Assembly (NCBI GenBank): GCA_039588335.1
Contig: JBDGZZ010000022.1
Coordinates: 1,963 to 65,962 of the forward strand
DNA from: Gemmatimonadota bacterium
GTDB taxonomy: Bacteria > Gemmatimonadota > Gemmatimonadetes > Gemmatimonadales > GWC2-71-9
Length of the DNA stretch: 64,000 nt
Direction of reading: 5' to 3'
How positions within the stretch are numbered: position 1 is the stretch's first letter; every line of letters starts with the position of its first letter. The notes beneath the pieces were generated by a model. That model worked only from the letters and a program-made list of their open reading frames with translations, made no database searches and was not told the DNA's origin. Below are positions 3,420-51,171 of the stretch, piece after piece. Made by a program: the position numbers and the translations under genes.

Positions 3420-3553
3420 CAATGCCAAGCTCAAAGTGATTGGCGGATGGGCCATGGAAACGTGGCCCATCCGCAGTTACGCCGGTATCGCCGGCGTGCC
3501 CAGCCCCTGTATCAGTTACTTGCCCTGGCACCGCCAGACCGCTATCTCAACCA

Positions 3554-32526: not shown

Positions 32527-33762
32527 ATGTACCGGACAATCCGTTCGCTGACCGTCACTGCGCTGTTGGGATCCCTTCTCATTACCGGAGCGGCCGCGGC
32601 ACAAGATGATGGCCGTCCAGTGGCACTGGTAGGTGCTACGATCATCGACCCGGTAGACGGCCATTCAATCGAGAGTGGTACGGTGGTAGTGGAACAGGGG
32701 AAGATCCGCAGCGTGTCGGAAGGGCAGAATGTACCACCTAACGCGCGAGTGATCGATGTGTCCGGTCGCTTTCTGTTGCCGGGGCTGATCGACGCTCACG
32801 TTCACATTGGCACCTTCGAAGCCGCTCGTCGCGCGCTGCGATCAGGCGTTACCACGGCGCGAAGCATGGGCGTCGGTTTCGTCGATGTGGGACTCAGGGA
32901 GTTGGCAGCCAAAGGTGCAATAGAGTCTCCTGAGTTGGTGGCATCCGGCTACCACGTCCGGCCCACCCCGGCGGACGGTTTCTTCATCGATGAACCGGGT
33001 CTGTCCGACCTGCTCGAGACTGGGGTTCACGGCCAGGAGGACCTGCGCCGGATGGTGCGCGCGATGATCTCGCGTGGTGTAGGTGTGATCAAGGTGAATG
33101 CGACGGCGAGGGCGGGGCTGCCCGAGACCGATCCACGTGAGCCGTACTACGATGAGGCTGAACTCCGAGCAGTTGTAGAGGAAGCCGCTCGGGCTGGCCT
33201 TTCCGTAGCGGCTCATGCCCACGGCGACGAGGGGGCGCGCGCTGCTGTTCTTGCCGGCGTCAGGAGCATCGAACACGGTACTTACCTGAGCGATGAAACC
33301 CTCGATCTGATGGTGTCGAGGGGTACCTATCTGGTTCCCACGATAGCCGTGGTAGCCGACCTGACTCTTCCCGGAGGCGACTACGACAATGCCATGCTCC
33401 AGGTTCGGGGAAGGCACATGCTGCCGCGAGTTCGAGACATGGCAGCCAGGGCGCACGGCAAGGGAGTCCGAATCGCGGCCGCTACTGACACCGGCTACGG
33501 TCCGGAGAGCGTGCTGCGTCTCAGCCACGAGTTGATGGAGTTGGCCGACGCCGGCCTTACCCCACTGCAGGTCCTCCAGTCAGCCACCACGGTTGCCGCG
33601 GAACTTCTGGGTGTGGCTGATCATACAGGAAGGCTGGTCGCCGGATACGATGGCGACCTCTTGCTCCTCGACCGAAACCCCCTCTGGGAAGCAGGAGCCT
33701 ACCAGGACGTGCTGTTGGTCATGGTGGATGGTCAGATCGCCCTGAACCGGCTGGAGTGGTAA
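32527..33762 (+). CDS. secreted amidohydrolase-family metal-dependent hydrolase
   Basis: Signal peptide; LPGLIDAHVHIG (HxH) metal motif; AHAHGDEG. Confidence 0.85.
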   Translation: MYRTIRSLTVTALLGSLLITGAAAAQDDGRPVALVGATIIDPVDGHSIESGTVVVEQGKIRSVSEGQNVPPNARVIDVSGRFLLPGLIDAHVHIGTFEAARRALRSGVTTARSMGVGFVDVGLRELAAKGAIESPELVASGYHVRPTPADGFFIDEPGLSDLLETGVHGQEDLRRMVRAMISRGVGVIKVNATARAGLPETDPREPYYDEAELRAVVEEAARAGLSVAAHAHGDEGARAAVLAGVRSIEHGTYLSDETLDLMVSRGTYLVPTIAVVADLTLPGGDYDNAMLQVRGRHMLPRVRDMAARAHGKGVRIAAATDTGYGPESVLRLSHELMELADAGLTPLQVLQSATTVAAELLGVADHTGRLVAGYDGDLLLLDRNPLWEAGAYQDVLLVMVDGQIALNRLEW

Positions 33763-33985: not shown

Positions 33986-35902
33986 ATGACCACGACAACT
34001 CCTGCCCCGAGGACGGATTCGTTGCCCAAGATAGCTACGAAGAGGAAGAGACCGAGAGTCATCAAGGTAAAAGAGCACACGGTAGAGGTCGTGTCGGACT
34101 CTGGTGAAGGCGCACAGAAGTGTAGCCAGATCTTCGCTTCCGTCTCGGCCAAGATGGGCAACGGTGTCTGGACTGTTGAGATAATACCGGCGGAGATCCA
34201 GCCGCCACCGAGGACCCCGACCAGTGCCAGCGGTAACCGAATTCGCATCGGGGCCGGCCCGGTCACCAATTGGGGAGACGCTGCCAACCTCGTCATGGCG
34301 TTCAACGAGCAAGTGTTGCTCAACCGACACCGTCTCGATGCGCTCGCCGAGGATGCGATCATCCTGATCGACGATATGTGGCTGAAGCACGATGACCCGG
34401 ACATCCGCAAGCAGTGGGAGGAAGCGATCGAGGAGATGTCCGGACGTAACTACCGGTTCGTGATGGTGCCTCTGGAGGAGCAATCTCTCACAATCGTTGA
34501 GAATCCACGCCGGGGCAAGAACATGTTCGCACTCGGTGTGCTCGCCGCAATCTACTCCCGCGACTTGGACAAGATCCGCGACTTGATTGCTCTCCAGTTC
34601 AAGCGCAAGGCCAAAGTAATCTACGAGAATAACGTGGCGCTGCTGGAGTTGGGGCACAAATGGGCGAAGGAAAACCTCGACTTCCGAGTCGAGGTTCCCA
34701 CCAAAGAGTCTGATCGCCCGATGGTGGTGATGAACGGCAACCAGGCGGTCGGGTTCGGCGCCATAGCTGCTGGCATGGAGCTGTGCTCCATGTACCCGAT
34801 CACGCCGGCTACATCGGCGTCGCACCACCTGAGCGACATCTTCGAGCAGTTTGGCGGGGTCGTACACCAGGCCGAAGACGAGATCGCGGCGGCCGGCGTG
34901 GCGATCGGCGCGTCGTTTGCCGGTAAGGTTGCGTTTACCATCACATCAGGACCAGGCATGGCGTTGAAGACCGAGTTCCTCGGACTAGCCATCATGACCG
35001 AGGTCCCGCTGGTGGTAGTCGATGTGCAGCGCGGAGGCCCAAGTACCGGGCTCCCGACCAAGATTGAGCAAGGTGACCTGCTGTCCTCCATCTTCGGTCA
35101 GCCGGGCGATGCTCCGCACGTGGTAATGGCTCCGGCAACGATGGAAGAGTGTTTCCTATGTATGACCACTGCCCGGCGGATTGCAGAGGCATTCCGCTGC
35201 GTGGTCATAGTGCTGTCGGATGCCAATCTGGCTACGGGCGTGCAGCCGTTTCCACGGCCCGACCTCAAGTCGGAGTGGATGGCAGCCCCACTCGATCTGG
35301 CTCGGGTGCCCGAGGGCACGCTTCCCTACGATTGGGATACGCAGCTCGGTCTGTCCCAGCGGGTCATTCCGGGACAGCCGGGCGGGATGCACATTGTGAC
35401 CGGGCTCTCCCACGATGAGAACAGCAAGATCGGATACAGCCCCGACGTGCATGAGCGGGGCTGTCAGATGAGAGCTCGCAAGATGGCGGTATTCCAGCAG
35501 ACCCTGAAAAAGCCGGTGGTGCATGGAGACGAGTCAGGGGACCTGCTGGTAGTTGGATGGGGGAGCACTTGGGGGGCGATCGAGGAAGCGGTGGACCGGA
35601 GTCGTGAGGAGGGTTTGTCAGTTTCCTCACTTCACCTGCGTTTCCTCTCTCCGCTGGAGCCTGGCCTCAAGGACATCTTCAGCCGATTCAAGAAAGTGAT
35701 GACGGTTGAGGTCAATTACAGCGACGACCCGGGCGACCCCTTCATCACGGATGAGAATAGGCGCCGGGGCCAGCTCAGCTGGCTGCTAAGGGCCAGCACG
35801 CTTGTCGATGTTGATTGCTGGACCAGGGTTCCGGGCCAGCCGTTGCGTCCGGTTAACATTCTAGATGCCATTCGTCGTCACATGCCGAATGGGGTGAAAT
35901 AA
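33986..35902 (+). CDS. korA: 2-oxoacid (2-oxoglutarate):ferredoxin oxidoreductase, fused gamma/alpha subunit
   Basis: 638 aa. SDSGEGAQ...AEIQPP gamma-type N-terminus followed by an alpha domain (MYPITPATSASHHL, GPGMALKTE, DVQRGGPSTGLPTK). Confidence 0.85.
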   Translation: MTTTTPAPRTDSLPKIATKRKRPRVIKVKEHTVEVVSDSGEGAQKCSQIFASVSAKMGNGVWTVEIIPAEIQPPPRTPTSASGNRIRIGAGPVTNWGDAANLVMAFNEQVLLNRHRLDALAEDAIILIDDMWLKHDDPDIRKQWEEAIEEMSGRNYRFVMVPLEEQSLTIVENPRRGKNMFALGVLAAIYSRDLDKIRDLIALQFKRKAKVIYENNVALLELGHKWAKENLDFRVEVPTKESDRPMVVMNGNQAVGFGAIAAGMELCSMYPITPATSASHHLSDIFEQFGGVVHQAEDEIAAAGVAIGASFAGKVAFTITSGPGMALKTEFLGLAIMTEVPLVVVDVQRGGPSTGLPTKIEQGDLLSSIFGQPGDAPHVVMAPATMEECFLCMTTARRIAEAFRCVVIVLSDANLATGVQPFPRPDLKSEWMAAPLDLARVPEGTLPYDWDTQLGLSQRVIPGQPGGMHIVTGLSHDENSKIGYSPDVHERGCQMRARKMAVFQQTLKKPVVHGDESGDLLVVGWGSTWGAIEEAVDRSREEGLSVSSLHLRFLSPLEPGLKDIFSRFKKVMTVEVNYSDDPGDPFITDENRRRGQLSWLLRASTLVDVDCWTRVPGQPLRPVNILDAIRRHMPNGVK

Positions 35903-36855
35903 TGACACAGACAGAGTGCTCGCTGCTGGGCTGCGGAGTAGACGAGGACCAGTGGTACTCGATGGACGATTACGAAGGTGCGGTTGCGCGCTGGTGCCCG
36001 GGATGTGGTGACCATGCAGTGCTGACGGCCGTACAACGCCTTCTCGAAGCCGAGCAGTTGGTGCCAGAGAAGACGGTGTTCGTATCGGGTATCGGTTGCT
36101 CGAGCCGCTTCCCACACTACCTGAAGACATATGGGTTCCACGGACTCCACGGCAGAGCGCTGCCGGTGGCAACGGGAGTCAAGCTGCGCCGTCCGGATCT
36201 TCAAGTATTTGCGGTCATGGGCGACGGGGATTGCTGCTCGATCGGTGCAGCTCACTGGATCCACACCGTGCGCTACAACCCCAACATGGTTGCCCTGATG
36301 CTGGACAACGGGGTATACGGTCTGACCAAGAACCAGACGTCACCAACTTCTCCGGAGGGCTATCCCAGCAACACGCAGCCACGCGGTGCGGTTCTGGAAC
36401 CGATGAACCCTATTGCGACAACGCTCGGAGTAACGAATGCGTCTTTCGTGGCTCAGACTGGCGACTGGATTCCAGATCACTTGTACGAGACCATCGCGGC
36501 CGGATATCGACACAAAGGCTTTTCGTTCATCCGAGTGCTGCAGCGGTGCCCGGCGTACACGACTCCCCTGTTCGAGGAGGCTGTGCGCAACCCCGAATTG
36601 GTGGAGTTGATGGTGCATCCTGACGGCATACCGGTCAACGGTCTGGAGCAGATCTACAAGAACCATGTACCACACGATCCATCTGATTTGCACAACGGTC
36701 AACGGCTGGCGGACTTCGATTCCAAGATCCGGCTGGGCCTGTTCTACCGAAACGAGAGCATTCCCCGCTACGAAGAGGTCCGGCACCAGGCGAACCGTAC
36801 CGCGGAGGAAAAGATACAGTTGCTGAATGCGGAGCTAGATCGATATGCCGTCTGA
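35902..36855 (+). CDS. korB: 2-oxoacid:ferredoxin oxidoreductase beta (TPP-binding) subunit
   Basis: WCPGCGDHAVL, GIGCSSRFP and GDGD motifs. The ATG overlaps the korA stop (TAATG). Confidence 0.85.
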   Translation: MTQTECSLLGCGVDEDQWYSMDDYEGAVARWCPGCGDHAVLTAVQRLLEAEQLVPEKTVFVSGIGCSSRFPHYLKTYGFHGLHGRALPVATGVKLRRPDLQVFAVMGDGDCCSIGAAHWIHTVRYNPNMVALMLDNGVYGLTKNQTSPTSPEGYPSNTQPRGAVLEPMNPIATTLGVTNASFVAQTGDWIPDHLYETIAAGYRHKGFSFIRVLQRCPAYTTPLFEEAVRNPELVELMVHPDGIPVNGLEQIYKNHVPHDPSDLHNGQRLADFDSKIRLGLFYRNESIPRYEEVRHQANRTAEEKIQLLNAELDRYAV

Positions 36856-37858
36856 CGAACGGACCGAATTGGCGATCAAGGCGCTGGCTGGGCAGACGCA
36901 AGGCTTCCGGTCGGCGCTCGCCACTACCATAGAACAGATTCGCAGTTTCTTGGCGTCGCACGGATCGGCCACTGACGGGAAGGCGGTCCGATTCATGACT
37001 GAACTGGGCCCTTTTGCCGAGGGACTGATCGATGCAGATAGATTCTCAGCGTTGTTCGCTGACAACCTGAAACTCGATACGGTCACACTCGACACCATCG
37101 GGAAAGCGCTGGATACGCTGACGGAACTCGCGGATCGCGGAGATGACATCTTCAAGGTCGATATAGAAAGCGGCGAGAGCCTCAGAGAAGGTGTCGCAGG
37201 CGCTCTGGATGATTGCGGCCGAGCATTTGGGGCGGCACGTGTGTTCGAGTTATCGAAGTTCGGCCGGTTTCCGGACAGCGAGCACGCCCGCTCACTTGGC
37301 TCTTTCCCGTTCCACCGGTGGAGCAGGGGTGAGCGAAGGCTCGCCCCTCCCTTGGTCGTAAGTGTCGACGGGAGCGATTTGCGGGCTGCAGGGCTGGCAG
37401 ATTTCATGGATGGCACGCAGAAGATAGTGCTCGTGGTAAGGGGGGAGTCGACTCCCGTGCCGCTAGTGCGCCTGATCACTCCAGGCGTGTTCGTACAACA
37501 GACAACCGAGCCGGGCGACATCAGTCGGCTGGCTGCCTGTGACGGACCGGGCGTGACAGCCATCGTTCCGGAGTCCGCCGCCCGCTTCGTTCATGACCCG
37601 TCCGTTGGTCGAGAAGCTGGAGAACGTCTCACTGTTTCGACGTTGCCAGAGGAGAGACGCAGGAAGCCGGTCGGTGGCGTGAGTGTCTCGCAGCAGTCCG
37701 AGGAGTTGCTCCAGTTGAAGGTGCTGTCGGGGCAGATGGGGGCAGCAGCTCAGGTTGGTACGGCCGAACCTGTGGGGGCAGTGAGTGCATCCGCCGATCC
37801 GGTGGACAAGTTGGCAGCCTGGCTCTTGAGTCAAGCCGACTTGAAGGACCTCGGTTAG
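36845..37858 (+). CDS. hypothetical soluble protein (337 aa) embedded between korB and rnfB
   Basis: The ATG overlaps the korB end by 11 nt, and the stop lies 9 nt before rnfB. Amino-acid composition is normal, whereas the antisense ORF 36835-37563 is S/P/A/R-biased. No recognisable motif and only 2 Cys. Confidence 0.6.
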   Translation: MPSDERTELAIKALAGQTQGFRSALATTIEQIRSFLASHGSATDGKAVRFMTELGPFAEGLIDADRFSALFADNLKLDTVTLDTIGKALDTLTELADRGDDIFKVDIESGESLREGVAGALDDCGRAFGAARVFELSKFGRFPDSEHARSLGSFPFHRWSRGERRLAPPLVVSVDGSDLRAAGLADFMDGTQKIVLVVRGESTPVPLVRLITPGVFVQQTTEPGDISRLAACDGPGVTAIVPESAARFVHDPSVGREAGERLTVSTLPEERRRKPVGGVSVSQQSEELLQLKVLSGQMGAAAQVGTAEPVGAVSASADPVDKLAAWLLSQADLKDLG

Positions 37859-37867
37859 TCTGAGCCA

Positions 37868-38719
37868 ATGGAAGTCTCGACCATCCTTGGTTCTGCAGCG
37901 ATACTCGGAGGGGTAGGGCTCACGTTCGGCACGCTGATCTCCCTTGCCCACCTGAAGCTCAAGGTTTGGGAAGATCCCCGAATCGACGAAGTCACAGACC
38001 TTCTGCCAGGTACGAACTGCGGAGCCTGCGGACGAGCCGGATGCCATGCGTTCGCTGAGGCGTTGGTAGACGGCAACGTGCAGCCGGCGACATGTACAGT
38101 CATGGGCCCTGACGATGTGTTCGACGTGGCTGGGTACCTTGGCGTGGAGGCTGGCGAAGCCAACAAACGTGTGGCTCGCCTGCTCTGCGCGGGCGGATGC
38201 GATGTCGCCGAGCAACAGGCCGAGTATAGAGGCTTGCGGAACTGCAAGGCCGCTGTGACGGTTGCCGGAGGCGGTAAGGGATGCGCCTGGGGTTGCCTAG
38301 GGCTGGACGACTGTGAACGATCGTGTGATTTCGAAGCGATCTACATGAACGCAGTTGGGATTCCGATTGTCATCCCCGAGAAGTGTACGGCGTGCGGTGA
38401 CTGCGTTGAAGCTTGCCCTCTCGATTTGTTCACTCTGATGCCGATCGAGCAGAAGTTGATCGTGCAGTGCAAGAACCTGATAGATGGTGACGAGGCGGAG
38501 GCCGCCTGCAAGGTTGCGTGCACGGCGTGCGGCAGGTGCGCCGCTGACGGGGCACCAGGCCTGATCGAGATGGTCAACGGCCTCGCAGTTATTGACTACG
38601 ACAAAAACGAGTTGGCTACTCCGGACGCCATCGCCCGGTGTCCGACGGGGGCCATCGCATGGGTTGATGGAGCTCAGTTTGCTGATACGCCCGAATTGGC
38701 GAGGAGCGCTACGGTATGA
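37868..38719 (+). CDS. rnfB: Rnf complex subunit B (membrane-anchored polyferredoxin)
   Basis: N-terminal TM helix, NCGACGRAGCHAFAEAL...ATC motif, and ferredoxin-type CTACGDCVEACP and CTACGRC...RCP clusters. Confidence 0.9.
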   Translation: MEVSTILGSAAILGGVGLTFGTLISLAHLKLKVWEDPRIDEVTDLLPGTNCGACGRAGCHAFAEALVDGNVQPATCTVMGPDDVFDVAGYLGVEAGEANKRVARLLCAGGCDVAEQQAEYRGLRNCKAAVTVAGGGKGCAWGCLGLDDCERSCDFEAIYMNAVGIPIVIPEKCTACGDCVEACPLDLFTLMPIEQKLIVQCKNLIDGDEAEAACKVACTACGRCAADGAPGLIEMVNGLAVIDYDKNELATPDAIARCPTGAIAWVDGAQFADTPELARSATV

Positions 38720-41700
38720 AACGCAACAAAGCTAGTGAAGCATCAGCTAAGGCCAAGTACCCCGGGATCGTTACCGCGGTTGACGGGAGTACGGCAGTCG
38801 TCGAGGTGGAAACTGCGGCCAGCGAAGCGGCCGGTGCATATCCGATCACGCCGTCCACGCAGATGGGTGAGGGGTGGGCTGCCGCGTTGGCGGCGGGCAG
38901 GAAGAACGTAAATGGCCGCAAGCTGATCTTCTTCGAGCCCGAAGGAGAACATGCGGCAGCGGCGGTGACCGCCGGTATGTCGATGACCGGTCTGCGGGCA
39001 ACGAATTTCTCCAGCGGTCAGGGCATCGCATACATGCACGAATCGCTGTACCCGGCGGTGGGTAAGCGGCTGACCTATGTGCTGAACGTCGCAGCTCGCG
39101 CGATGACAAAGCACGCCTTGAACGTGCATGCCGGGCACGACGACTACCACGCGGTCGATGATACGGGTTTCTTCCAGCTCTTCGCCAAGAACCCTCAGGA
39201 GATAGCCGACCTCACGCTGATCGCGCACCGGACGGCCGAGCTGTCGCTGAATCCGGGGCTGTGTGCCCAAGACGGGTTCCTCACCAGTCATGTGATCGAG
39301 TCGGTGAGGCTGCCTGAGCGCGAGATGATCAAGGAGTATCTCGGCGATCCGTCAGACATCATCGAATCGCCCACGCCGGCGCAACGTCTCGTCTTCGGTG
39401 AGAAGCGCCGCCGGATTCCGGAGATGTTCGACCTAGACTACCCGGCGATGATCGGTGTCGTTCAAAACCAGGATTCCTACAATCAGGGCGTCGCTGCCCA
39501 GCGTCCGTTCTACTTCGATCACGTAGTGGCTCTTGCCGATCAGGCGATGGCCGAGTTCGAGGCGCTGACCGGCCGGCGCTATGCTCGCGTAATGTGCTAC
39601 CGCATGGATGATGCGGAATACGTGATCGCGGGACAGGGATCGCTGGTGTCAAATGCCGAGGTTGTTTGTGACTATCTGCGCGAGAGTAGGGGTCTCAAGG
39701 TCGGGGTCCTGAATGTCACCATGTTCCGTCCGTTCCCTTCAGACCTGATGTCTGAGACGTTGCGGGGCAAGAAATCCATCACGGTACTCGAACGAACAGA
39801 TCAGCCATTGGCTGTAGATGCCCCACTATTGCGAGAGATGCGGGCGGCCATGGGCAAAGCTCTGGAGAACTCGCGGGCAGGTGCTGGTGAAGTCCCGCAT
39901 TCGGGCGTTGTGTCGTGCGGTGCAGATGAGATCCCGGAGTTCTTCTCTGGTTGCTTCGGACTCGGCAGCCGGGACATTCAGCCCGGTCAACTCGTGGCCG
40001 CAGTTGAGAACATGTTGGAGGATGGAAAGAGACGACGTCAGTTCTATCTGGGGATCGATTTCGTGCGTGCGGGGACCCAGTTGCCCAAGCTTCAAATCTG
40101 GCAGGAACAACTGCTCGAGGGCTATCCCGACATTGCGGATCTGGCGCTGGCGTCGAAGGAGGATCTCAACCTACTGCCCGAGGATGCTATCTCCATCCGT
40201 ATCCACTCAGTGGGTGGATGGGGAGCCATCACCATGGGGAAGAACCTGGCAATGACGGCGGCCGACCTTTTCGGCCTCAACATCCAGGCGAATCCCAAGT
40301 ATGGGTCCGAGAAGAAGGGGCAACCGACCACGTTCTACGCGACGCTGGCAGAAGAGGTGCTGCGGCTGAATTGTGAGTTGAAGCATGTCAACGTTGTCCT
40401 CGCTCCTGACCCCAATGTGTTCAAGCACTCGAATCCGCTGGCAGGGATTGCGGACAACGGTGTCTTCATCATCCAGAGCGATTTCGACGCAGAGACTTTC
40501 TGGAACAGCCTGCCGGGGACGGCGCAACGCGCGCTGAAGTCGAAGGGCGTGAAGGTCTACCTGCTAGACGCGTTCGCGATCGCTTCGGCCGAGGCATCGG
40601 ATCCGGCACTGCGGTATAGGATGCAGGGTGCGGCATTCATGGGTGCGTTCTTCCACGTTTCACCTCTAGTCGATCGGTATAAGCTGGAAGAGGAGAAGCT
40701 ATTTGACGGCATTCGCGCGCAGCTGAAGAAGAAGTTCGGGCACCTGGGCGAACGTGTGGTTGAGGACAACGTCCGGGTCATTCGGAGGGGCTTCGATGAG
40801 ATCAGGGAACTGGACATCGAGCACCTGAGTACAGAGAAGTCAGAAGCTGGTTCAGTGCCGCAGATGCCGGACGTTCTGGACGGTGCGGGCTGGCAGGACG
40901 GAATTGGCAACCCCGGAAGATTCTGGGAGCAGGTCTGCCATCTCTACAAGACGGGAGATGATGGCATTGCTGATCCGTTCGCGGCGATCAGCGCGATTCC
41001 GGCAGCAACGAGTACCATCCGCGATATGACGGATGTTCGCTTTGAGATCCCGGACTTCGTGGCGGAGAAGTGTACCGGTTGCGGCCAATGTTGGGTGCAA
41101 TGTCCGGATACTGCGATTCCGGGATTGGTGACCGAAGTCGACCAGGTCATCTACGCGGCCATAAATACGGTGTCCAACGGTAAGTCGTACGACCGATTGC
41201 GACAGGTGGTACCGCATATCGCTCGCGAATCGCGGCGCATAATGAAGGGCGTCGCAGTCAAATCGTTTGCCGATATCATGTCGAGCGCTTATGAGAGTGT
41301 GGCGGAAAAGCTGAAGCTCGATCCGGAGCGGCGTTCGGCACTCGACGGCGAATTCGGTTCAGTCTATTCAGCCTTGGCCGACTTCCCGCTTGCGAAAACA
41401 GCCCCATTCTTCGATGTCCCCGAGGATCAGGAGAAGGGAACCGGAGCGCTCCTCTCAATCACGGTCAATCCGGAGACGTGCAAGGGGTGCAATATCTGTG
41501 TAGACGTGTGCCCTGACGAAGCACTCGTGACGATCAAACAAGATGAAGAGGCAGTTGACAAGCTGCGGCGGAATTGGGCGTTGTGGCAAAACCTGCCGGA
41601 AACGGACGATCGGTACATCAACATCTCTAACATGGACGAAGGCATCGGGGTTCTCTCGTCCCTGTTGCTCAAGAAGCACAATTACAGGTCTATGATGGGT

Positions 41701-43755
41701 GGTGACGGGTCATGCATGGGCTGCGGTGAGAAGACGGTCATTCACCTGGTCTTGTCAGCAGTCAACGCGCTCATGATTCCACGAGTGCAGAAATATGTAG
41801 ACAAGTTGGACGACCTCATATCACGACTCGATGCCAAGGCTCGGGACATACTCGTATCTGAGGCAGATCTGGATAAGGTCGGGTCAAGTGAGGGTGAGGT
41901 GGAGATCCCCCTCGAGAAATCGAAGCAGGGACAGGTCGAGCACTTGAACAGTGTCATGCACGATCTGAAGGATCTCCGCTGGCGATATGCGGAGGGACCA
42001 AGCGGGAAAGGTAGGTCGACCTTGGGCATGACGAACGCCACGGGTTGCTCATCCGTGTGGGGGAGTACCTATCCATATAACCCGTACCCATTCCCATGGA
42101 CCAACCATCTGTTCCAGGATGCGCCTTCCATTGCGATCGGAATCTTCGAAGGCCACATGCGGAAGATGGCAGATGGTTTCATTGCCGTCCGTCGCGCTGA
42201 GCTGGAGTTGAGCGGAGAGTATGAGGCCGAGACACACGAGCCTTTCTTCTCTGAGTTTGACTGGCGCCAGTTCGATGACGCCGAGTTCGCCATGTGTCCG
42301 CCGATCTTTGCCGTGGGCGGCGACGGCGCGATGCTCGACATCGGTTTCCAGAACCTGTCGCGACTGCTGGCATCTGGGAAACCGATTCGGGTTATCGTAC
42401 TGGACACACAAGTCTACTCGAATACGGGAGGACAGGCCTGCACCAGCGGATTCCTGGGTCAGGTGTCCGACATGGCGGCCTACGGTGCCGGGCAGCATGG
42501 GAAGGAGGAGATGCGCAAGGAACTTTCTCTGATCGCCATGGCACATGGGCGAGTCTTCGTACTTCAGTCAACGCAGGCGGCTGCATCACATTTGATCGAA
42601 GGTGTACTGAAGGGGCTCCAATCCAAGTGTCCTGCCGTGTTCGGGCTGCATTGCCCTTGTCCTCCAGAGCATGGACTGGGCGACGACCAGGCCACCAGGG
42701 CATCACGTCTCGCCATGGAGAGTCGAGCCTACCCGGTTCTGATGTACGATCCGTTCGGTGGGGACTATATCAGCGAACAGCTGACTCTGGACGGGAACCC
42801 CTCGGTAGACGAGACATGGCCTACCTATGAGGTCAGCTACCTCGACGACGGTGGTGAAGAGAAACGACTCGAGTTGCCGGTTACGATTGCCGACTGGGCT
42901 GCCACGGAGACGCGGTTCCAGAAACACTTCAAGACGATCAAGGGCGATGTAGATGAAGACGGCCTGGTGCCGTTTCACGAGTACATGGTACTACCGAGCG
43001 ACGAACGTGAGGAAAAGACTCCCATCATCTATCAGATTGATGACGAGAAAAAGCTCACACGTCTCTTTGTGTCCGGCGAGATGGTCGAGCTGGCCGAGGA
43101 TCGGCTGCGAGTCTGGTCGCAACTCAAACAAATGGCTGGACTCGAGTTGGCACCCGACGTGAGGGACGGTGTCGAGTATGAACTGGAGGCGGAGTTCAAC
43201 AAGAAGGCAGAAGCTCTGCAAACAGAGTACACAGCGCAGTTGGCGCAGTTGAAGGCGCGGTATCCAGCCCTGGTGGCTCGCAAGCTGGCCGAAGGGCTCG
43301 TGCGGGCAGGAAACGGTGGGCGGACAGTCGAGGACTTGCTGGCTCAGGTTCAGGAAATGCCGCTTGCTCCCGTCACGGCCGAGATGGCTGGTGACGGCGA
43401 CCTTGCGGCGGCTCCGGCGGCTGCAACGGCGCCGGGAACAGTAGCGGCGGCTACAGCCGTGGCTGAGGCACCTGCGGCCGTAGAGGAGGAGGAAGAGGAG
43501 GGGCTGGTGATGGAGCCGTACATCGATTCGGCTCGATGCACCACGTGCGATGAATGCACGAACCTCAACAATAAGATGTACGCATACAACGAGAAGAAAC
43601 AGGCATATATAAAGGATCCCAGGGCAGGAACTTTCAAGCAACTTGTGCAGGGTGCCGAGAAGTGTCCCGTTCGCATCATACATCCGGGAACACCTCTCAA
43701 CCCGAGGGAGAAAGATCTGGAGAAGTGGGTCAAGCGGGCCGAGCCCTTCAACTGA
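38716..43755 (+). CDS. por: PFOR/NifJ-family single-polypeptide 2-oxoacid:ferredoxin oxidoreductase, unusually long (1679 aa) with a C-terminal ferredoxin domain
   Basis: AYPITPSTQMGE (domain I); HSVGGWGAITMGKN...PKYGSEKKGQPT (domain III); CTGCGQCWVQCP and CKGCNICVDVCP (domain V); GDGSCMGCGEK, ATGCSSVWG, GGDGAMLDIGFQNL and VLDTQVYSNTGGQ (TPP domain). The C-terminal part has an Ala/Pro/Glu linker followed by CTTCDEC...CP. Confidence 0.9.
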   Translation: MKRNKASEASAKAKYPGIVTAVDGSTAVVEVETAASEAAGAYPITPSTQMGEGWAAALAAGRKNVNGRKLIFFEPEGEHAAAAVTAGMSMTGLRATNFSSGQGIAYMHESLYPAVGKRLTYVLNVAARAMTKHALNVHAGHDDYHAVDDTGFFQLFAKNPQEIADLTLIAHRTAELSLNPGLCAQDGFLTSHVIESVRLPEREMIKEYLGDPSDIIESPTPAQRLVFGEKRRRIPEMFDLDYPAMIGVVQNQDSYNQGVAAQRPFYFDHVVALADQAMAEFEALTGRRYARVMCYRMDDAEYVIAGQGSLVSNAEVVCDYLRESRGLKVGVLNVTMFRPFPSDLMSETLRGKKSITVLERTDQPLAVDAPLLREMRAAMGKALENSRAGAGEVPHSGVVSCGADEIPEFFSGCFGLGSRDIQPGQLVAAVENMLEDGKRRRQFYLGIDFVRAGTQLPKLQIWQEQLLEGYPDIADLALASKEDLNLLPEDAISIRIHSVGGWGAITMGKNLAMTAADLFGLNIQANPKYGSEKKGQPTTFYATLAEEVLRLNCELKHVNVVLAPDPNVFKHSNPLAGIADNGVFIIQSDFDAETFWNSLPGTAQRALKSKGVKVYLLDAFAIASAEASDPALRYRMQGAAFMGAFFHVSPLVDRYKLEEEKLFDGIRAQLKKKFGHLGERVVEDNVRVIRRGFDEIRELDIEHLSTEKSEAGSVPQMPDVLDGAGWQDGIGNPGRFWEQVCHLYKTGDDGIADPFAAISAIPAATSTIRDMTDVRFEIPDFVAEKCTGCGQCWVQCPDTAIPGLVTEVDQVIYAAINTVSNGKSYDRLRQVVPHIARESRRIMKGVAVKSFADIMSSAYESVAEKLKLDPERRSALDGEFGSVYSALADFPLAKTAPFFDVPEDQEKGTGALLSITVNPETCKGCNICVDVCPDEALVTIKQDEEAVDKLRRNWALWQNLPETDDRYINISNMDEGIGVLSSLLLKKHNYRSMMGGDGSCMGCGEKTVIHLVLSAVNALMIPRVQKYVDKLDDLISRLDAKARDILVSEADLDKVGSSEGEVEIPLEKSKQGQVEHLNSVMHDLKDLRWRYAEGPSGKGRSTLGMTNATGCSSVWGSTYPYNPYPFPWTNHLFQDAPSIAIGIFEGHMRKMADGFIAVRRAELELSGEYEAETHEPFFSEFDWRQFDDAEFAMCPPIFAVGGDGAMLDIGFQNLSRLLASGKPIRVIVLDTQVYSNTGGQACTSGFLGQVSDMAAYGAGQHGKEEMRKELSLIAMAHGRVFVLQSTQAAASHLIEGVLKGLQSKCPAVFGLHCPCPPEHGLGDDQATRASRLAMESRAYPVLMYDPFGGDYISEQLTLDGNPSVDETWPTYEVSYLDDGGEEKRLELPVTIADWAATETRFQKHFKTIKGDVDEDGLVPFHEYMVLPSDEREEKTPIIYQIDDEKKLTRLFVSGEMVELAEDRLRVWSQLKQMAGLELAPDVRDGVEYELEAEFNKKAEALQTEYTAQLAQLKARYPALVARKLAEGLVRAGNGGRTVEDLLAQVQEMPLAPVTAEMAGDGDLAAAPAAATAPGTVAAATAVAEAPAAVEEEEEEGLVMEPYIDSARCTTCDECTNLNNKMYAYNEKKQAYIKDPRAGTFKQLVQGAEKCPVRIIHPGTPLNPREKDLEKWVKRAEPFN

Positions 43756-43762
43756 TCTTCCA

Positions 43763-45085
43763 ATGTTCCACAAGTTCACGTTCCGGCACGGGGTCCACCC
43801 GCCCGAGCTCAAGCAGCTGACCGAGTCGCTTCGGATCCGGCGCATGCCGTTTCCGGACGAAGTGGTGCTACCGCTCAGTCAGCACACTGGGAAACCGGCT
43901 ACGGTAATGGTGCGTCCGGGAGACCGGGTCGAACGCGGCGACAAGATAGCTGATGCCGACGGGTTCATCTCCGCTCCGGTCCACGCGTCCGCCGCAGGGA
44001 CAGTGGAAGACATCGGTCTGTGGCCACACCCGCTGGGGTCATACTCGCCGGCGGTCCGAATAACAGTGGACCGCTATTCGGCACAAGCTGCGAGGCCCCG
44101 AGTAGTACCGGAGTGGGAGGGCCTCACTCCCGACGGGATTCGCCAGGCCGTGAAGGACGGTGGGCTGGTGGGATTGGGAGGCGCCGCGTTCCCCACCCAT
44201 GTGAAACTGAGTCCCCCCAAAGACAAGCAACTCGACACCCTCATCATAAATGGCTGCGAGTGCGAGCCCTATCTGACGACTGACCATCGTACCATGGTGG
44301 AGTATCCCGAGCGCGTGCATCTGGGGATTCGCATAATGATGCAATGTCTGGGTGTGGGCCGCACGATGATCGGTATCGAAAAGAACAAGCCGGATGCTAT
44401 CGACGCAATTCGGGATACGCTTCCTGCCGACCTGGATGTGACGGTACATCCATTGACGGTGAAATATCCCCAGGGTGCGGAGAAGATGCTCATCGAGGCT
44501 TTGGCGGAGAGGGAGGTGCCTTCTGGAAAGCTGCCGCTAGACGCCGGTGTGGTGGTACAGAACGTTGCATCGGTTGCCACTATAGCGGAAATCTTTGAAA
44601 CCGGGCTGCCACTGATCGAGCGTATCGTCACAGTCACCGGTCACGGCATCAAGGACCCGTCCAACCTGATCGTTCCGGTCGGTACCAAATTGGCTGATCT
44701 GCTCGATACGTGTGGCGGCCTCACGGACGACGCTTTCGAGATCGTGTTTGGCGGTCCCATGATGGGTGCTGCGCAGGCCAACCTCGACGTGCCGATTCTC
44801 AAGGGCACTACTGGAGTAGTGGTCCTCACGGAATCGCAATGCAGGGCCAAGGAGTCTCATCCGTGCATCAGGTGTGGGCACTGTCTGGATGCCTGTCCCG
44901 TCTTCTTGAACCCACAGTTGTTGGGGAGTTTGGCGCGAGCAGAGCGGTGGGAAGAGATGGAAGGCAACCACCTTCTCGACTGCATGTTGTGTGGCTGCTG
45001 TTCCTATGCGTGTCCCTCCAATATTCCGCTGAGCCAGATGTTTGCACTGGGCAAGGCTGCTCTACGAAAGAGCAAGGCGGCGTGA
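43763..45085 (+). CDS. rnfC: Rnf complex subunit C
   Basis: MFHKFTFRHGVHPPE N-terminus, GLVGLGGAAFPTHVKL, CIRCGHCLDACP and CMLCGCCSYACP motifs. ATG 43763 is preferred over the track start at 43643. Confidence 0.9.
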   Translation: MFHKFTFRHGVHPPELKQLTESLRIRRMPFPDEVVLPLSQHTGKPATVMVRPGDRVERGDKIADADGFISAPVHASAAGTVEDIGLWPHPLGSYSPAVRITVDRYSAQAARPRVVPEWEGLTPDGIRQAVKDGGLVGLGGAAFPTHVKLSPPKDKQLDTLIINGCECEPYLTTDHRTMVEYPERVHLGIRIMMQCLGVGRTMIGIEKNKPDAIDAIRDTLPADLDVTVHPLTVKYPQGAEKMLIEALAEREVPSGKLPLDAGVVVQNVASVATIAEIFETGLPLIERIVTVTGHGIKDPSNLIVPVGTKLADLLDTCGGLTDDAFEIVFGGPMMGAAQANLDVPILKGTTGVVVLTESQCRAKESHPCIRCGHCLDACPVFLNPQLLGSLARAERWEEMEGNHLLDCMLCGCCSYACPSNIPLSQMFALGKAALRKSKAA

Positions 45086-46086
45086 CGACACCTTCCTTTC
45101 TGATAACTGCCTCTCCACACCTGGGATCACGCGATACCACGCCGACTATCATGTGGTCGGTAGTCCTCAGTTTAGTTCCGGTCGTGGCGGTATCGATCTT
45201 CTACTTCGGACCCTCTGCTGTCCTTGTGATTTCAGCTGCAACCGCCGGGGCAGTCATCACGGAGTATGCATTTGGTGCCAAGGGAACTCTGAAAGACGGA
45301 TCGACTGCCATAACCGGAGTGCTGCTGGGATTGACGCTCCCCCCGGGATTGCCGATATGGATGGCCTTTCTGGGTGGGGTTTTCGGTATCGGATTCGGGA
45401 AGCTGATTTTCGGAGGCCTGGGGCAGAACATCTTCAATCCAGCACTCCTTGGGCGAGCGTTCCTGCAGGCGGCTTTTCCCGTTGCGATCACGACCTGGCC
45501 AGCGCTGGGTGGTAGCTGGTGGAGTCTGCGGGGCGACAACTTCGCACTTCCCTTGATGAGTCCCAATGTCCCGGACGCTTTGACCGGTGCAACACCGCTC
45601 GGGCTCATGAAATTCGATCAGATGACGACCGCGAGCAGCGATCTAATAATGGGGTCGGTGGGTGGTTCACTGGGGGAGACTTCCGGTGTCGTCATTCTGA
45701 TTTGCGGTGCCTATCTTGCTCTGAGGAACCACCTCAATTGGCGAATCCCGGCGAGCATATTCCTGACGGTGGCAGTTTTGGCCGGCGGAGTACACTTGCT
45801 CGATCCGGTGCGTTACCCCAACGCGATCTTCATGCTGTTTTCCGGCGGCCTGATGCTGGGAGCGGTGTACATGGCGACCGACATGGTGACTTCGCCGGTC
45901 ACAAACCGCGGCTGCTGGGTGTTCGGATTCGGTATCGGGTTTCTGGTGGTGGTCATCAGACTGTGGGGTGGGCTGCCCGAAGGAGTCATGTACGCAATCC
46001 TGCTCATGAACGCGCTGGTTCCGTTCATTAATCGGGCGACGCAACCACGAGTGTTCGGTACTCGGCTGAAGGAGGCACGGTCTTGA
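45082..46086 (+). CDS. rnfD: Rnf complex subunit D
   Basis: Polytopic membrane protein. GTG overlaps the rnfC stop (GTGA). DALTGATPL flavinylation motif; YMATDMVTSP. Confidence 0.9.
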   Translation: MTTPSFLITASPHLGSRDTTPTIMWSVVLSLVPVVAVSIFYFGPSAVLVISAATAGAVITEYAFGAKGTLKDGSTAITGVLLGLTLPPGLPIWMAFLGGVFGIGFGKLIFGGLGQNIFNPALLGRAFLQAAFPVAITTWPALGGSWWSLRGDNFALPLMSPNVPDALTGATPLGLMKFDQMTTASSDLIMGSVGGSLGETSGVVILICGAYLALRNHLNWRIPASIFLTVAVLAGGVHLLDPVRYPNAIFMLFSGGLMLGAVYMATDMVTSPVTNRGCWVFGFGIGFLVVVIRLWGGLPEGVMYAILLMNALVPFINRATQPRVFGTRLKEARS

Positions 46087-46766
46087 CCGGCGGTAGCCAG
46101 CAGGGCCAGGCGAACGGACCAGGGGCACCTCCCATGAGACCGGAGGTTCCTCCGTGGAAGTTACTGTCCACGCTCGGCACGGCCGGGGCTGTTGCTGGCC
46201 TCTTGATCGTCTTCGTTTTCGTTGCGACTGAGCCGGCCATCAAGGCCCACAAGGCTGAGGTGTTGAGGTTGGCGATCCAGGAAGTCCTCAAAGGTCCTGA
46301 CAGTTTCGACACGCTGTTTGTGGTTGAGGGGAGGCTGGAGGAGGAGCCACCAGCAGGAGTGAATCTCGAGGCACTCGAGCATGTGTACGTTGGGTACGGA
46401 GTGGATGGGAACCAGCTGGGATTTGCGATTGCCTCCGGGGAACCTGGGTTTCAGGACATAATCCGACTGATCTTCGGTTATGACGCATTCAATCGTACCG
46501 TCCTGGGCATGAAGGTCTTGGAGAGCAAGGAGACACCGGGGCTAGGGGACAAGATTGAGAAGAATCTGGATTTCGTGCAACAATTCGAAGGTGCAGTGAC
46601 GCCCCTCGAGGGAGTGAACCCGAGGCGCGCCACAGGTGACGAGCACGAAATCGACATGATCACGGGAGCGACGATATCCTCCCGTGCGGTAGTACGCATC
46701 ATCAACAACGCAATGGAGCGGCTGGGGCCGCTCATTGACGAATACAATGGCGGAGGGAGCCGATGA
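46083..46766 (+). CDS. rnfG: Rnf complex subunit G (FMN-binding)
   Basis: Single N-terminal TM helix and the DMITGATISSRAV FMN-attachment motif. The TTG start overlaps the rnfD stop; an alternative ATG lies at 46134. Confidence 0.85.
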   Translation: MTGGSQQGQANGPGAPPMRPEVPPWKLLSTLGTAGAVAGLLIVFVFVATEPAIKAHKAEVLRLAIQEVLKGPDSFDTLFVVEGRLEEEPPAGVNLEALEHVYVGYGVDGNQLGFAIASGEPGFQDIIRLIFGYDAFNRTVLGMKVLESKETPGLGDKIEKNLDFVQQFEGAVTPLEGVNPRRATGDEHEIDMITGATISSRAVVRIINNAMERLGPLIDEYNGGGSR

Positions 46767-47419
46767 GAGCGACGACTCCGCAGCAGGATTTCATGCGTGG
46801 CATCTGGAGAGAGAATCCAGTGCTCATTCAGATGCTCGGACTGTGTCCTGCGCTGGCGGTGACCAATACGGTGAAAAACAGCATCGCCATGGGGCTCGCC
46901 ACGTTTTTCGTGCTGACGGGGTCCAGCCTCTTGGTCTCTCTATTCAAGCGGTTCATACCGCACGAGGTACGCATATCCACATATATCCTGATCATTGCGA
47001 CGTTCGTGACGATCGCCGACATGACGCTCGAGGCGGTGGTCCCCGACATACACAAGGCGTTGGGTGCGTTCATTGCGCTGATCGTTGTCAACTGCATGAT
47101 CCTCGGACGCCAAGAAGCCTTTGCGTCGAAGAAGCCGGTGGGCCGCGCGCTATTGGACGCCTTTGGAACGGGGATCGGTTTCATAATAGCCATGTTGATG
47201 ATGGGTACCGTCAGGGAAGTGTTGGGCAACGGATCGTTCCTCGGCGTCAGCCTGTTCGGTCCCAATTTTGAACCGTGGGTGGTGTTCATACTTCCTCCAG
47301 GCGGATTCCTGACGATCGGATTCATCTTGCTGGGGTTGAGTTGGATCGAGCGCAGGAGAAAACAGAAGCCTATGGTGCGGGAATGGCCTGAAGGCGTAGC
47401 CTCGGAGAAGGCGGCATGA
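46763..47419 (+). CDS. rnfE: Rnf complex subunit E
   Basis: NPVLIQMLGLCPALAVT motif, 6 TM helices, ATGA overlap with rnfG. Confidence 0.9.
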   Translation: MRATTPQQDFMRGIWRENPVLIQMLGLCPALAVTNTVKNSIAMGLATFFVLTGSSLLVSLFKRFIPHEVRISTYILIIATFVTIADMTLEAVVPDIHKALGAFIALIVVNCMILGRQEAFASKKPVGRALLDAFGTGIGFIIAMLMMGTVREVLGNGSFLGVSLFGPNFEPWVVFILPPGGFLTIGFILLGLSWIERRRKQKPMVREWPEGVASEKAA

Positions 47420-47997
47420 CCAGCGACCTGCTATGGATCCTGATCTCGGCGATGGTGGTAAATAACTTCACGCTCGCCTATTTCCTCGGTCTGTGCCCCT
47501 TCATGGGAGTATCTGGTCGAGTGGAGACCGCCATCAGGATGGGGGCAGCGAACATATTCGTCCTGACCATCACGGCCATCTGTGCGTGGTTTCTCAACAC
47601 ATATATTCTGCCATATGCGCCATACTTGCGACTGATTTCTTTCATTGTCGTCATAGCATCCCTGGTGCAGATCGTTGAAATGACGATCAAGAAGATCAGT
47701 CCCACGCTGTTCAGACAACTTGGGATATATTTGCCTTTGATAACCACGAACTGCGCAATCCTCGGTTTTGCTATCTTCGCAACAAACCGGGGTTACGGGT
47801 TCTTCCAAGGTCTCTCATTTGCCATCGGTGCCGGGCTTGGCCTGACGCTTGCATTGGTGCTCATGGCATCCATAAGAGAGAATAGTGAGTTGGTGGATGT
47901 ACCAGAAGTTGCCAAGGGAACGGCCCTCGTGTTCATCATTGCCGGATGTCTGTCCTTGGCGTTCATGGGATTCGCCGGACTGTTGACTTCCACATGA
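47416..47997 (+). CDS. rnfA: Rnf complex subunit A
   Basis: NNFTLAYFLGLCPFMGVS motif, 6 TM helices, ATGA overlap with rnfE. Confidence 0.9.
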   Translation: MTSDLLWILISAMVVNNFTLAYFLGLCPFMGVSGRVETAIRMGAANIFVLTITAICAWFLNTYILPYAPYLRLISFIVVIASLVQIVEMTIKKISPTLFRQLGIYLPLITTNCAILGFAIFATNRGYGFFQGLSFAIGAGLGLTLALVLMASIRENSELVDVPEVAKGTALVFIIAGCLSLAFMGFAGLLTST

Positions 47998-48167
47998 TTG
48001 AAGTCCTGGCCATTCTTGGGTTTGCAGTACTGTTCGCGGTATTTGGAGCCCTCCGGGGCAGGGTGCAGGAGTCGCATCGGTGCGATGCCTGCCCGGGCCG
48101 GGAAGATCCGGGTGCCTGCGGGATCTGTCATACCTTACGCGATATTTCGGAGTCAAGCCATGCATAA
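47994..48167 (+). CDS. 57-aa membrane miniprotein: one TM helix plus a 2x CxxC tail (NqrM-like or FeoB-associated Cys-rich type architecture)
   Basis: MIEVLAILGFAVLFAVFGALRGRVQESHRCDACPGREDPGACGICHTLRDISESSHA. The ATG overlaps the rnfA stop (ATGA), and the stop overlaps the apbE start by 8 nt. Confidence 0.55.
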   Translation: MIEVLAILGFAVLFAVFGALRGRVQESHRCDACPGREDPGACGICHTLRDISESSHA

Positions 48168-49182: not shown

Positions 49183-49219
49183 GGGGAACGGGATATGCGC
49201 CCCGTTCCCCTTTTTCTTT
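49183..49219 (+). terminator. rho-independent terminator closing the kor-rnf-apbE operon
   Basis: GGGGAACGGG (49183-49192) and CCCGTTCCCC (49201-49210) form a perfect 10-bp stem. It is followed by TTTTTCTTT. Confidence 0.8.
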
Positions 49220-51170: not shown

Positions 51171-51171
51171 A

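Follow-up and report, generated by a model that had tools for sequence, protein, structure and literature searches.

A long pyruvate:ferredoxin oxidoreductase with a tethered ferredoxin domain, encoded between rnfB and rnfC in a Gemmatimonadota bacterium

Domain organization of PFOR-L

A 64,000-nt stretch of DNA from a Gemmatimonadota bacterium (GenBank assembly GCA_039588335.1, contig JBDGZZ010000022.1), here called the window, encodes a long member of the pyruvate:ferredoxin oxidoreductase (PFOR) family. The open reading frame (ORF), named PFOR-L for long PFOR, occupies positions 38716–43755, starts with ATG, ends with TGA and encodes 1679 amino acids (aa) that comprise domains I to VI, a C-terminal extension, a tether and a ferredoxin domain. 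It belongs to an operon of 11 genes in the order OFORα-OFORβ-unk337-RnfB-PFOR-L-RnfC-D-G-E-A-ApbE, where OFOR denotes a 2-oxoacid:ferredoxin oxidoreductase. All features of the operon lie on the plus strand.

Pfam searches of PFOR-L identified POR_N (aa 34–213), PFOR_II (300–382), POR (500–694), Fer4 (about 775–801 and 915–949), TPP_enzyme_C (1196–1308) and Fer4_13 (1603–1656). The PFOR domains stand in the canonical order in a single chain and are colinear with 6CIN, 1B0P and Escherichia coli YdbK. The best solved relatives are the PFORs of Moorella thermoacetica (6CIN, E = 3e-88) and Desulfovibrio africanus (1B0P); the alignment to the solved enzymes consists of blocks with large unmatched stretches between them. 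PFORs also rank first in a Foldseek search with the PFOR-L model. The two [4Fe-4S] motifs of domain V, CTGCGQCWVQCP (41071–41106, aa 786–797) and CKGCNICVDVCP (41479–41514, aa 922–933), start 136 residues apart, compared with 56 residues in YdbK. An earlier reading, made without database searches (the sequence-only reading), had described a single 1679-aa ORF with the PFOR hallmarks, had placed the two motifs 136 residues apart, from nt 41071 and from nt 41479, and had given the canonical spacing as roughly 55–60 residues; the present analysis bears out all of this.

The family was represented by the 120 best database relatives of PFOR-L, which cover 91–100% of the query (98–100% in all but two) at 66–87% identity; residue conservation was checked in 119 homologues. 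Of the 120 relatives, 92 have their domain V motifs exactly 136 aa apart, and in 119 the distance is 135–137 aa. Likewise, 119 of the 120 are 1645–1723 aa long and colinear with PFOR-L. The cysteines of the first domain V motif are 99–100% conserved and those of the second are 100% conserved.

The additional length could in principle be an artefact, caused by a mis-assembled duplication or by a frameshift fusion of neighbouring genes, as the sequence-only reading had cautioned. Nothing was found in favour of this explanation, which has a negligible probability and is ruled out by relatives of the same length and colinear order that come from independent assemblies. In addition, the insert lengths are fixed across the family and the inserts fold confidently in AlphaFold2 (AF2), the ORF contains no DNA repeats, direct or inverted, of at least 30 nt, and GC content and composition are even along it. 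PFOR-L is a real, intact ORF.

Against the NifJ/PFOR equivalog TIGR02176, PFOR-L scores 422.5 bits, far below the cut-off of 911.35. It shares the structure and the cofactor-binding residues of PFORs and lacks both the equivalog score and the canonical length; it is hence a variant of PFOR that falls outside the equivalog. The score, the length and the motif spacing support the view, already put forward in the sequence-only reading, that PFOR-L represents a distinct PFOR subfamily.

Helical inserts, C-terminal extension and tethered ferredoxin

The positions of the inserts were derived from a MAFFT alignment of PFOR-L with E. coli YdbK (1174 aa) and family members, and an AF2 model was built for aa 740–1679 from a 76-sequence family alignment (mean predicted local distance difference test score, pLDDT, 77). 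Compared with YdbK, small inserts are found at aa 2–19, 201–208, 389–403, 448–469 and 700–714. Two larger inserts, in domains V and VI, have fixed lengths across the family and mean identities of 56–63%.

The domain V insert (41194–41457, aa 827–914 by alignment) is a gap relative to YdbK, in which about 76 aa (827–837 and 850–914) are unmatched; an insertion of about 80 aa had been predicted at this very place. In the AF2 model it forms a helical bundle of approximately aa 808–905 (model residues 69–166) with a pLDDT of about 90. Its mean identity in the family is 63%, and it is kept in the pseudo-PFORs and in the PFOR-like proteins of variant B that are described below. The domain VI insert (41779–42027, aa 1022–1104) comprises 83 aa that are absent from YdbK and agrees with the further insertion that had been expected in the thiamine pyrophosphate (TPP) domain. 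It separates the proximal-cluster ligands C1000 and C1003, which form a CxxC motif, from C1111, and is modelled as a long helical hairpin (aa 1004–1047 and 1068–1092; model residues 265–308 and 329–353). Pseudo-PFORs and variant B proteins also have this insert, and unk337 has a more remote version of it.

At the C-terminus, PFOR-L has approximately 260 aa of extra sequence relative to YdbK (gaps at aa 1413–1531 and 1541–1679). The sequence-only reading was right that an extension is present; it underestimated the size, at about 200 aa, and overlooked the terminal ferredoxin domain with its fourth cluster motif (aa 1608–1651) at the end of a tether. The structured part of the extension (42952–43356, aa ~1413–1547, about 135 aa) has no counterpart in YdbK. 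AF2 predicts a beta/alpha region followed by a 52-residue helix (model residues ~631–808), with pLDDT values that are mostly 70–90 and drop to about 53–63 over the last 30 or so residues.

The next segment (43357–43506, aa ~1548–1597) is a tether of about 50 residues with a high content of Ala, Pro and Glu; it ends in EEEEEE and is disordered in the model (pLDDT below 50, model residues 809–858). It is among the least conserved regions of PFOR-L and varies in length, with 73–99 aa between the anchor motifs. The C-terminal segment (43507–43752) consists of a single-[4Fe-4S] ferredoxin domain (aa 1598–1660) and a conserved tail. The ligand motif is of the form CxxCxxC...CP (CTTCDEC...CP, aa 1608–1651), and its four cysteines are 100% conserved. 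The domain is recognized by Pfam as Fer4_13 (E = 2.6e-7), matches D. africanus ferredoxin I (1DAX) in sequence, and is matched by Foldseek to 1FXR, also D. africanus ferredoxin I (TM 0.85, root-mean-square deviation 1.2 Å, 59 columns). The ferredoxin domain and the tail are 77–80% conserved in the family, and the tail (...IIHPGTPLNP...KRAEPFN) also occurs in pseudo-PFORs. A variable disordered linker followed by a highly conserved ferredoxin and tail is the signature of a flexible tether that bears a functional domain; according to the model, PFOR-L carries its own ferredoxin on such a tether.

Pfam detected no flavodoxin, FAD-binding or NAD-binding domain in PFOR-L. A fusion to a flavoprotein of the pyruvate:NADP+ oxidoreductase type was considered and ruled out, as the only C-terminal match in Pfam is Fer4_13.

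Catalytic and substrate-binding residues

The TPP-binding motif of PFOR-L, GGDG...DTQVYSNTGGQ (42313–42435, aa 1200–1240; GGDGAMLDIG...DTQVYSNTGGQ), is 100% conserved in the 119 homologues, which belong to variant A of the locus, and is lost in variant B. Twelve cysteines are available for the three canonical clusters (786/789/792/796, 922/925/928/932 and 1000/1003/1111/1315). Together with those of the ferredoxin domain they make 16 cysteines for four [4Fe-4S] clusters, all of which are 99–100% conserved. PFOR-L is therefore a homologue of the cofactor-less pseudo-PFORs and not one of them: it keeps the TPP motif and the proximal cysteines, which are only 0–2% conserved in the pseudo-families. 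By these residues, the enzyme looks catalytically competent.

The substrate-contacting residues Thr31, Arg114, Ile123, Ile843 and Asn996 of the D. africanus enzyme correspond to Thr45, Arg128, Val137, Val1114 and Asn1236 of PFOR-L, and Thr45, Arg128 and Asn1236 are 99–100% conserved in the homologues. The pocket thus appears to be of the pyruvate type, and is perhaps slightly roomier than that of D. africanus owing to Val in place of Ile at 137 and 1114. The sequence-only reading had left the substrate open between pyruvate and another 2-oxoacid; these residues narrow the choice, and the assignment of the substrate itself stays tentative.

Gene neighbours in the operon

The first operon gene, OFORα (33986–35902, 638 aa), encodes a gamma-alpha fused subunit that scores 533 bits against TIGR03710 (cut-off 482) and contains the Pfam domains POR, POR_N and PFOR_II. 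OFORβ (35902–36855, 317 aa) is the TPP-binding subunit with TPP_enzyme_C and PFO_beta_C; its score against TIGR02177 is 233 bits, below the cut-off of 262. The two subunits do not have a ferredoxin domain of their own and are syntenic in both variants of the locus. The third gene, unk337 (36845–37858), encodes a conserved protein of 337 aa without a Pfam, NCBIfam or PDB sequence match.

RnfB (37868–38719, 283 aa) matches the NCBIfam rnfB families and the Pfam domains FeS and Fer4. Its closest solved structures are those of the Rnf complexes of Acetobacterium woodii (9ERI_B, 3e-56) and Clostridium tetanomorphum (7ZC6_B), and by sequence it is of the long polyferredoxin type that accepts ferredoxin. 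The rnfB stop codon overlaps the start codon of PFOR-L (ATGA), and the ATG of rnfC lies 7 nt past the PFOR-L stop codon. RnfC (43763–45085; TIGR01945, 524 bits) is followed by RnfD (45082–46086; TIGR01946), whose GTG start overlaps the rnfC stop codon (GTGA), RnfG (46083–46766; TIGR01947 and Pfam FMN_bind), RnfE (46763–47419; TIGR01948) and RnfA (47416–47997), which contains the Pfam domain Rnf-Nqr and scores 226.8 bits against TIGR01943, just under the cut-off of 229.3. The last operon gene encodes an ApbE flavin transferase (47998–49158; Pfam ApbE, E = 1.8e-72). ApbE proteins mature the covalent FMN subunits of Rnf. Just 3' of apbE there is a terminator-like hairpin (49183–49210) with a 10-bp stem of 8 G-C pairs followed by a T-run. 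Promoter and terminator scans gave counts in the region that were not above those in shuffled sequence, and only this hairpin was noteworthy.

Two further loci adjoin the operon. A gene for a Memo-like protein (AmmeMemoRadiSam system protein B, TIGR04336; 49274–50107, plus strand) lies right after the hairpin and is syntenic only in the two closest relatives. A second two-subunit OFOR is encoded convergently to the operon on the minus strand (50145–52992; alpha 51172–52992, beta 50145–51251). Its alpha subunit scores 585 bits against TIGR03710 and is about 32% identical to the first OFORα; only the two closest relatives (L002 and L004) have the pair at the same site.

Conservation of the locus

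A scan of a collection with one genome per species revealed 459 stretches that encode PFOR-L relatives, and the best 80 of these (variant A) were retrieved. Most of the 80 come from metagenome-assembled genomes (MAGs) of Gemmatimonadota; other labels include Planctomycetota, Rokubacteria, Acidobacteriota, Eisenbacteria, Akkermansiaceae, Armatimonadota and Geobacter. The ten-gene core from OFORα to RnfA has the same order and orientation in every one of these loci with enough flanking sequence, and unk337 occupies the same slot in all variant A loci. By tblastn, apbE is the gene after rnfA in 30 of 39 loci, and by ORF clustering in 35 of 41. No flanking gene beyond ApbE recurs in variant A loci, and the flanks gave no hint of the direction of the pathway. 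The identities of PFOR-L co-vary with those of the Rnf and OFOR genes (Spearman rho 0.6–0.83), which is compatible with inheritance as a unit and equally expected from shared phylogeny, and hence carries little weight.

unk337, pseudo-PFORs and variant B

A search with the C-terminal extension module alone (PFOR-L aa 1351–1679) retrieved at least 550 representative clusters at E <= 1e-30. The module ends many proteins of about 790–900 or 1330–1460 aa in which Pfam finds only the terminal ferredoxin and no PFOR domain; these proteins contain a degenerate domain VI without the TPP motif. A family of about 840 aa aligns with the C-terminal half of PFOR-L by hhalign (E = 1e-127, 794 columns) over both helical inserts, domain VI, the C-terminal extension, the tether and the ferredoxin. 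A third architecture, found outside the window (P0145, P0150, P0171 and P0205; about 1330–1460 aa), retains only traces of PFOR domain II. These are single-chain pseudo-PFORs with a degenerate domain VI and the same extension, tether and ferredoxin.

The unk337 protein has at least 958 homologues, and the named ones among the best 120 are all 'hypothetical'. In BLASTP it has no match to PFOR-L and matches a pseudo-PFOR only at E = 0.018. The comparison of profiles with hhalign links it to the ~840-aa pseudo-PFOR family (probability 98.8%, E = 4.6e-17, 268 columns), and its AF2 model has a pLDDT of 85. We infer that unk337 is a cofactor-less relative of the PFOR domain VI region, with helical hairpins and an alpha/beta domain.

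The ~840-aa proteins define a second form of the locus. At least 581 loci encode them (variant B), of which 80 were scanned. The hosts are mainly sulfur-oxidising Gammaproteobacteria (Thiomargarita, Candidatus Thiodiazotropha, tubeworm endosymbionts, Sedimenticola, Chromatiaceae), Planctomycetota and Eisenbacteria. In approximately 60 of the 80 loci the order is OFORα-OFORβ-pseudo840-RnfB-PFOR-like, followed by RnfC-D-G-E where the flank allows; the Eisenbacteria locus L082, which was analysed in detail, is one of these. The genes are only 25–40% identical to those of the window.

The PFOR-like proteins of variant B (42 ORFs) have lost the substrate Thr, which is replaced by Phe or Tyr, the four proximal-cluster cysteines, the NTGGQ sequence and the ferredoxin domain; by these losses, they are evidently catalytically dead. 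They have kept the eight domain V cysteines (90–100%) and both inserts. The tethered ferredoxin of variant B resides on the ~840-aa pseudo-subunit related to unk337 and not on the PFOR-like protein. Both variants combine Rnf and a two-subunit OFOR with one tethered ferredoxin and two proteins derived from PFOR, namely a pseudo-subunit and a protein that has the two domain V clusters. Since variant B keeps the domain V clusters, the tether and Rnf despite the loss of catalysis, selection seems to preserve the electron wire, the tether and the Rnf neighbourhood.

Some variant B loci deviate from the common order. In three genomes of tubeworm endosymbionts (L138, L142 and L151) and in a Sedimenticolaceae MAG (L143), there is a gap of about 1 kb between the pseudo-subunit and rnfB, and the ~3.5 kb that follow the PFOR-like gene yielded no rnfC, which is the very next gene in most of the other variant B loci. 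The cluster may be rearranged or interrupted in these four genomes. An Isosphaeraceae MAG (L161, positions 1–6200) has two tandem OFORαβ pairs upstream of the pseudo-subunit, whose OFORα copies are 58% and 34% identical to that of the window.

Proposed function and direction

The most probable function of PFOR-L, in our view held with moderate confidence, is that of a catalytically competent pyruvate-type OFOR with a tethered ferredoxin that feeds Rnf in an oxidative mechanism. The sequence-only reading had called the partner unknown. This no longer holds: because of the ferredoxin domain and the conserved placement between rnfB and rnfC, its own ferredoxin and the Rnf complex are strongly indicated as partners. 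The operon would form a dedicated electron-input or electron-output module of Rnf.

In this mechanism, PFOR-L would carry out the TPP-dependent decarboxylation of pyruvate or a close 2-oxoacid with coenzyme A (CoA) and pass two electrons through the three canonical clusters. The tethered ferredoxin would load at the distal domain V cluster and unload at the polyferredoxin subunit RnfB; with about 50 disordered residues, the tether could reach up to approximately 15–17 nm when fully extended, and would allow the domain to get to RnfB. Rnf would then reduce NAD+ and pump Na+ or H+, and the net reaction would be pyruvate + CoA + NAD+ -> acetyl-CoA + CO2 + NADH + ion-motive force. The standard potentials E0' of acetyl-CoA + CO2/pyruvate (about -500 mV) and NAD+/NADH (-320 mV) leave about 35 kJ per mol for ion pumping. 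Such a system could be the energy-conserving counterpart of pyruvate dehydrogenase, in which low-potential electrons stay out of the free ferredoxin pool. The co-encoded two-subunit OFOR, which lacks its own ferredoxin domain, plausibly feeds the same route, and the helical inserts and unk337 are likely assembly or docking surfaces.

PFOR-L might instead be a soluble, free-standing enzyme, in which the fused ferredoxin simply replaces a separate gene; it would be co-regulated with Rnf and not docked to it, the reduced carriers would diffuse, and the inserts would confer stability or oxygen tolerance, like domain VII of the D. africanus enzyme. We regard this as improbable. Gene clustering alone indeed proves no complex, enzyme-carrier fusions are common, and the domain VI insert adjoins the proximal-cluster ligands and could shield that cluster. 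However, a domain tethered to a large homodimer is not free to diffuse as a carrier, and its electrons can get to a membrane complex only if the entire enzyme approaches to within reach of the tether. Across lineages, down to 25–40% identity, the gene remains in the slot between rnfB and rnfC, and its codons overlap or adjoin those of its neighbours. Clusters, inserts, tether and Rnf neighbourhood persist in the catalytically dead versions; this would be difficult to account for if the electron-transfer scaffold did not itself cooperate with Rnf.

We tentatively suggest a more specific arrangement of the Rnf-coupled system, as a possibility short of an even chance: RnfB may be the platform on which PFOR-L, unk337 and OFORαβ build a supercomplex at the membrane. 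This would be a '2-oxoacid:NAD+ oxidoreductase ion pump' or, in reverse, a 2-oxoacid synthase driven by the ion gradient, in which electrons move only via protein-bound clusters and the tethered ferredoxin. The variant B paralogues, those of sulfur-oxidising symbionts and giant sulfur bacteria, would then be wiring pseudoenzymes that serve the OFOR. If true, the supercomplex would add a previously unrecognised and widespread form to Rnf-based energy coupling, one found in more than 1000 species-level genomes.

Several points weigh against the oxidative, Rnf-coupled function. Synteny and translational coupling prove that the proteins are co-expressed and made in stoichiometric amounts, which falls short of proving a complex. 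The AF2 model is a monomeric fragment and is silent on the placement of the inserts relative to the dimer interface or the distal cluster. The identity of the PFOR-L substrate was deduced from five pocket residues only. Foldseek found no significant match for the unk337 model, so that the relation to domain VI comes from the profile comparison only. The locus scans retrieved relatives solely from uncultivated organisms, as metagenome-assembled or single-cell genomes, and a search for expression evidence returned no RNA runs, only DNA runs of sediment metagenomes with at most 10% of words in common. With respect to direction, the closest solved structure to OFORα is the 2-oxoglutarate:ferredoxin oxidoreductase (OGOR) of Magnetococcus marinus (6N2N, E = 6e-80), which works in the reductive tricarboxylic acid (TCA) cycle, and variant B is common in chemoautotrophs with reductive-TCA genes.

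The last two points lead to the possibility that the same machine runs in reverse. Rnf would use the ion gradient and NADH to reduce the tethered ferredoxin, PFOR-L would act as a pyruvate synthase and OFORαβ as a 2-oxoglutarate synthase, in the service of CO2 or acetate assimilation of a reductive-TCA or anaplerotic type. PFOR and Rnf are both reversible. Besides the affinity of OFORα to the Magnetococcus enzyme and the concentration of variant B in sulfur-oxidising chemoautotrophs and symbionts, for which korAB and Rnf have been considered in connection with the reductive TCA cycle, a reverse function would give the tether a benefit: it would protect scarce low-potential electrons, which are most valuable for carboxylation. 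Reverse electron transport by Rnf to ferredoxin is stated in PMC7414866.

The gene content of the window argues for oxidation instead: its aminotransferases and unusually numerous peptidases can supply 2-oxoacids and suggest a proteolytic lifestyle. ATP-citrate lyase or another reductive-TCA marker is absent from the window, and none recurs in the flanks. In addition, the 'PFOR-like' and dimeric korAB genes of Candidatus Endoriftia persephone, presumed to be of variant B, are regulated oppositely to the reductive-TCA operon. The context of PFOR-L is heterotrophic, with three M14 peptidases, an M20 peptidase, a dipeptidase-like protein and aminotransferases. We consider the reversed machine less likely than the oxidative one. 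For this organism, oxidation is slightly favoured over the reverse direction on weak evidence.

The peptidase-type ORFs of the window lie at 11882–13852, 17439–20366, 61321–63924, 785–2053 and 32527–33762 and comprise three M14 zinc carboxypeptidases, an M20/M28 peptidase and an Xaa-Pro-dipeptidase-like amidohydrolase. A class-V aminotransferase is encoded at 31055–32335 and a 1019-aa protein with Sortilin/BNR repeats at 14283–17342.

Other genes of the window

Two further ORFs lie outside the operon. A 1169-aa ORF (3440–6949, plus strand) encodes a molybdopterin oxidoreductase (Molybdop_Fe4S4, Molybdopterin, Molydop_binding) fused to a C-terminal Aminotran_5 domain (E = 4e-82) that resembles class-V aminotransferases and cysteine desulfurases, an unusual architecture. 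A 464-aa ORF (53989–55383, minus strand) has no Pfam match at E <= 1e-5.

Comparison with known systems

Searches of a full-text library turned up no account of PFORs of this length, and none in which a PFOR bears a tethered ferredoxin or is encoded within an rnf operon; the names of PFOR-L relatives in public databases are only generic. The possibility that PFOR-L belongs to a well-characterised length class, raised as a caveat in the sequence-only reading, was set aside as far as that library reaches. The only related mention concerns the Riftia symbiont Candidatus Endoriftia persephone, in which a 'PFOR-like' gene and the dimeric korAB respond together, and in which the OGOR/PFOR isoforms and RNF are listed as of unknown function or direction (Mitchell et al. 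2024, PMC11636981). These genes probably represent variant B, which was seen in the tubeworm-symbiont genomes L138, L142 and L151, and the operon described here offers a concrete hypothesis for them. Should the system work in reverse, it would bear on how chemoautotrophic symbionts power reductive carboxylations. In contrast to the PFOR-like protein of variant B, PFOR-L keeps all catalytic features and carries the ferredoxin itself. The dead paralogues that retain the iron-sulfur wire appear to be a clear case of enzyme-to-scaffold evolution.

PFOR and Rnf are the two central players of ferredoxin bioenergetics, and the link between them is normally seen as a pool of ferredoxin that diffuses freely. 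That PFOR-L bears its ferredoxin on a tether and is encoded between rnfB and rnfC suggests a direct, hard-wired link between 2-oxoacids and membrane energy. If this is true, about 35 kJ per mol of pyruvate, which pyruvate dehydrogenase loses, would be saved as ion-motive force, and oxygen-labile low-potential electrons would be kept from the cytoplasm, which may be relevant to energy-limited sediment bacteria.

The operon of the window resembles those of the Rnf complexes of A. woodii (9ERI) and C. tetanomorphum (7ZC6) in the full set RnfB-C-D-G-E-A with ApbE and in the long RnfB. It differs from described rnf operons in that the same unit also encodes a two-subunit OFOR, a pseudo-subunit and a PFOR whose ferredoxin is tethered; to our knowledge, no gene for a 2-oxoacid oxidoreductase stands between rnfB and rnfC in the operons described so far, whose products use free ferredoxin. 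Among PFORs, PFOR-L is similar to the homodimeric PFOR/NifJ enzymes (D. africanus 1B0P, Moorella 6CIN, YdbK), with which it shares domains I to VI in one chain, the TPP motif, the three [4Fe-4S] clusters and the Thr, Arg and Asn substrate residues. Unlike canonical PFORs of about 1170–1240 aa, it is approximately 450–500 residues longer, is encoded within an rnf operon and has the helical bundle in domain V, the hairpin in domain VI, the C-terminal extension, the tether and the ferredoxin domain.

Euglena and Cryptosporidium offer a eukaryotic parallel: in their pyruvate:NADP+ oxidoreductase, of about 1800 aa, a PFOR is extended C-terminally by an electron-accepting module. That module is a flavoprotein of the NADPH-cytochrome-P450-reductase type, whereas the module of PFOR-L is a small tethered ferredoxin, and the reduction of NAD+ in the PFOR-L system would fall to the membrane Rnf complex. 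The swinging lipoyl domains of the E2 component of 2-oxoacid dehydrogenases provide an analogy only. The E2 lipoyl arm shuttles between active sites in one assembly that oxidises 2-oxoacids to acyl-CoA and NADH, and in both cases a small carrier is placed on a flexible linker rich in Ala and Pro. The two carriers are non-homologous, and the iron-sulfur domain of PFOR-L would carry electrons, not an acyl group. PFOR-L may thus represent a natural design for tethered-carrier electron channelling.

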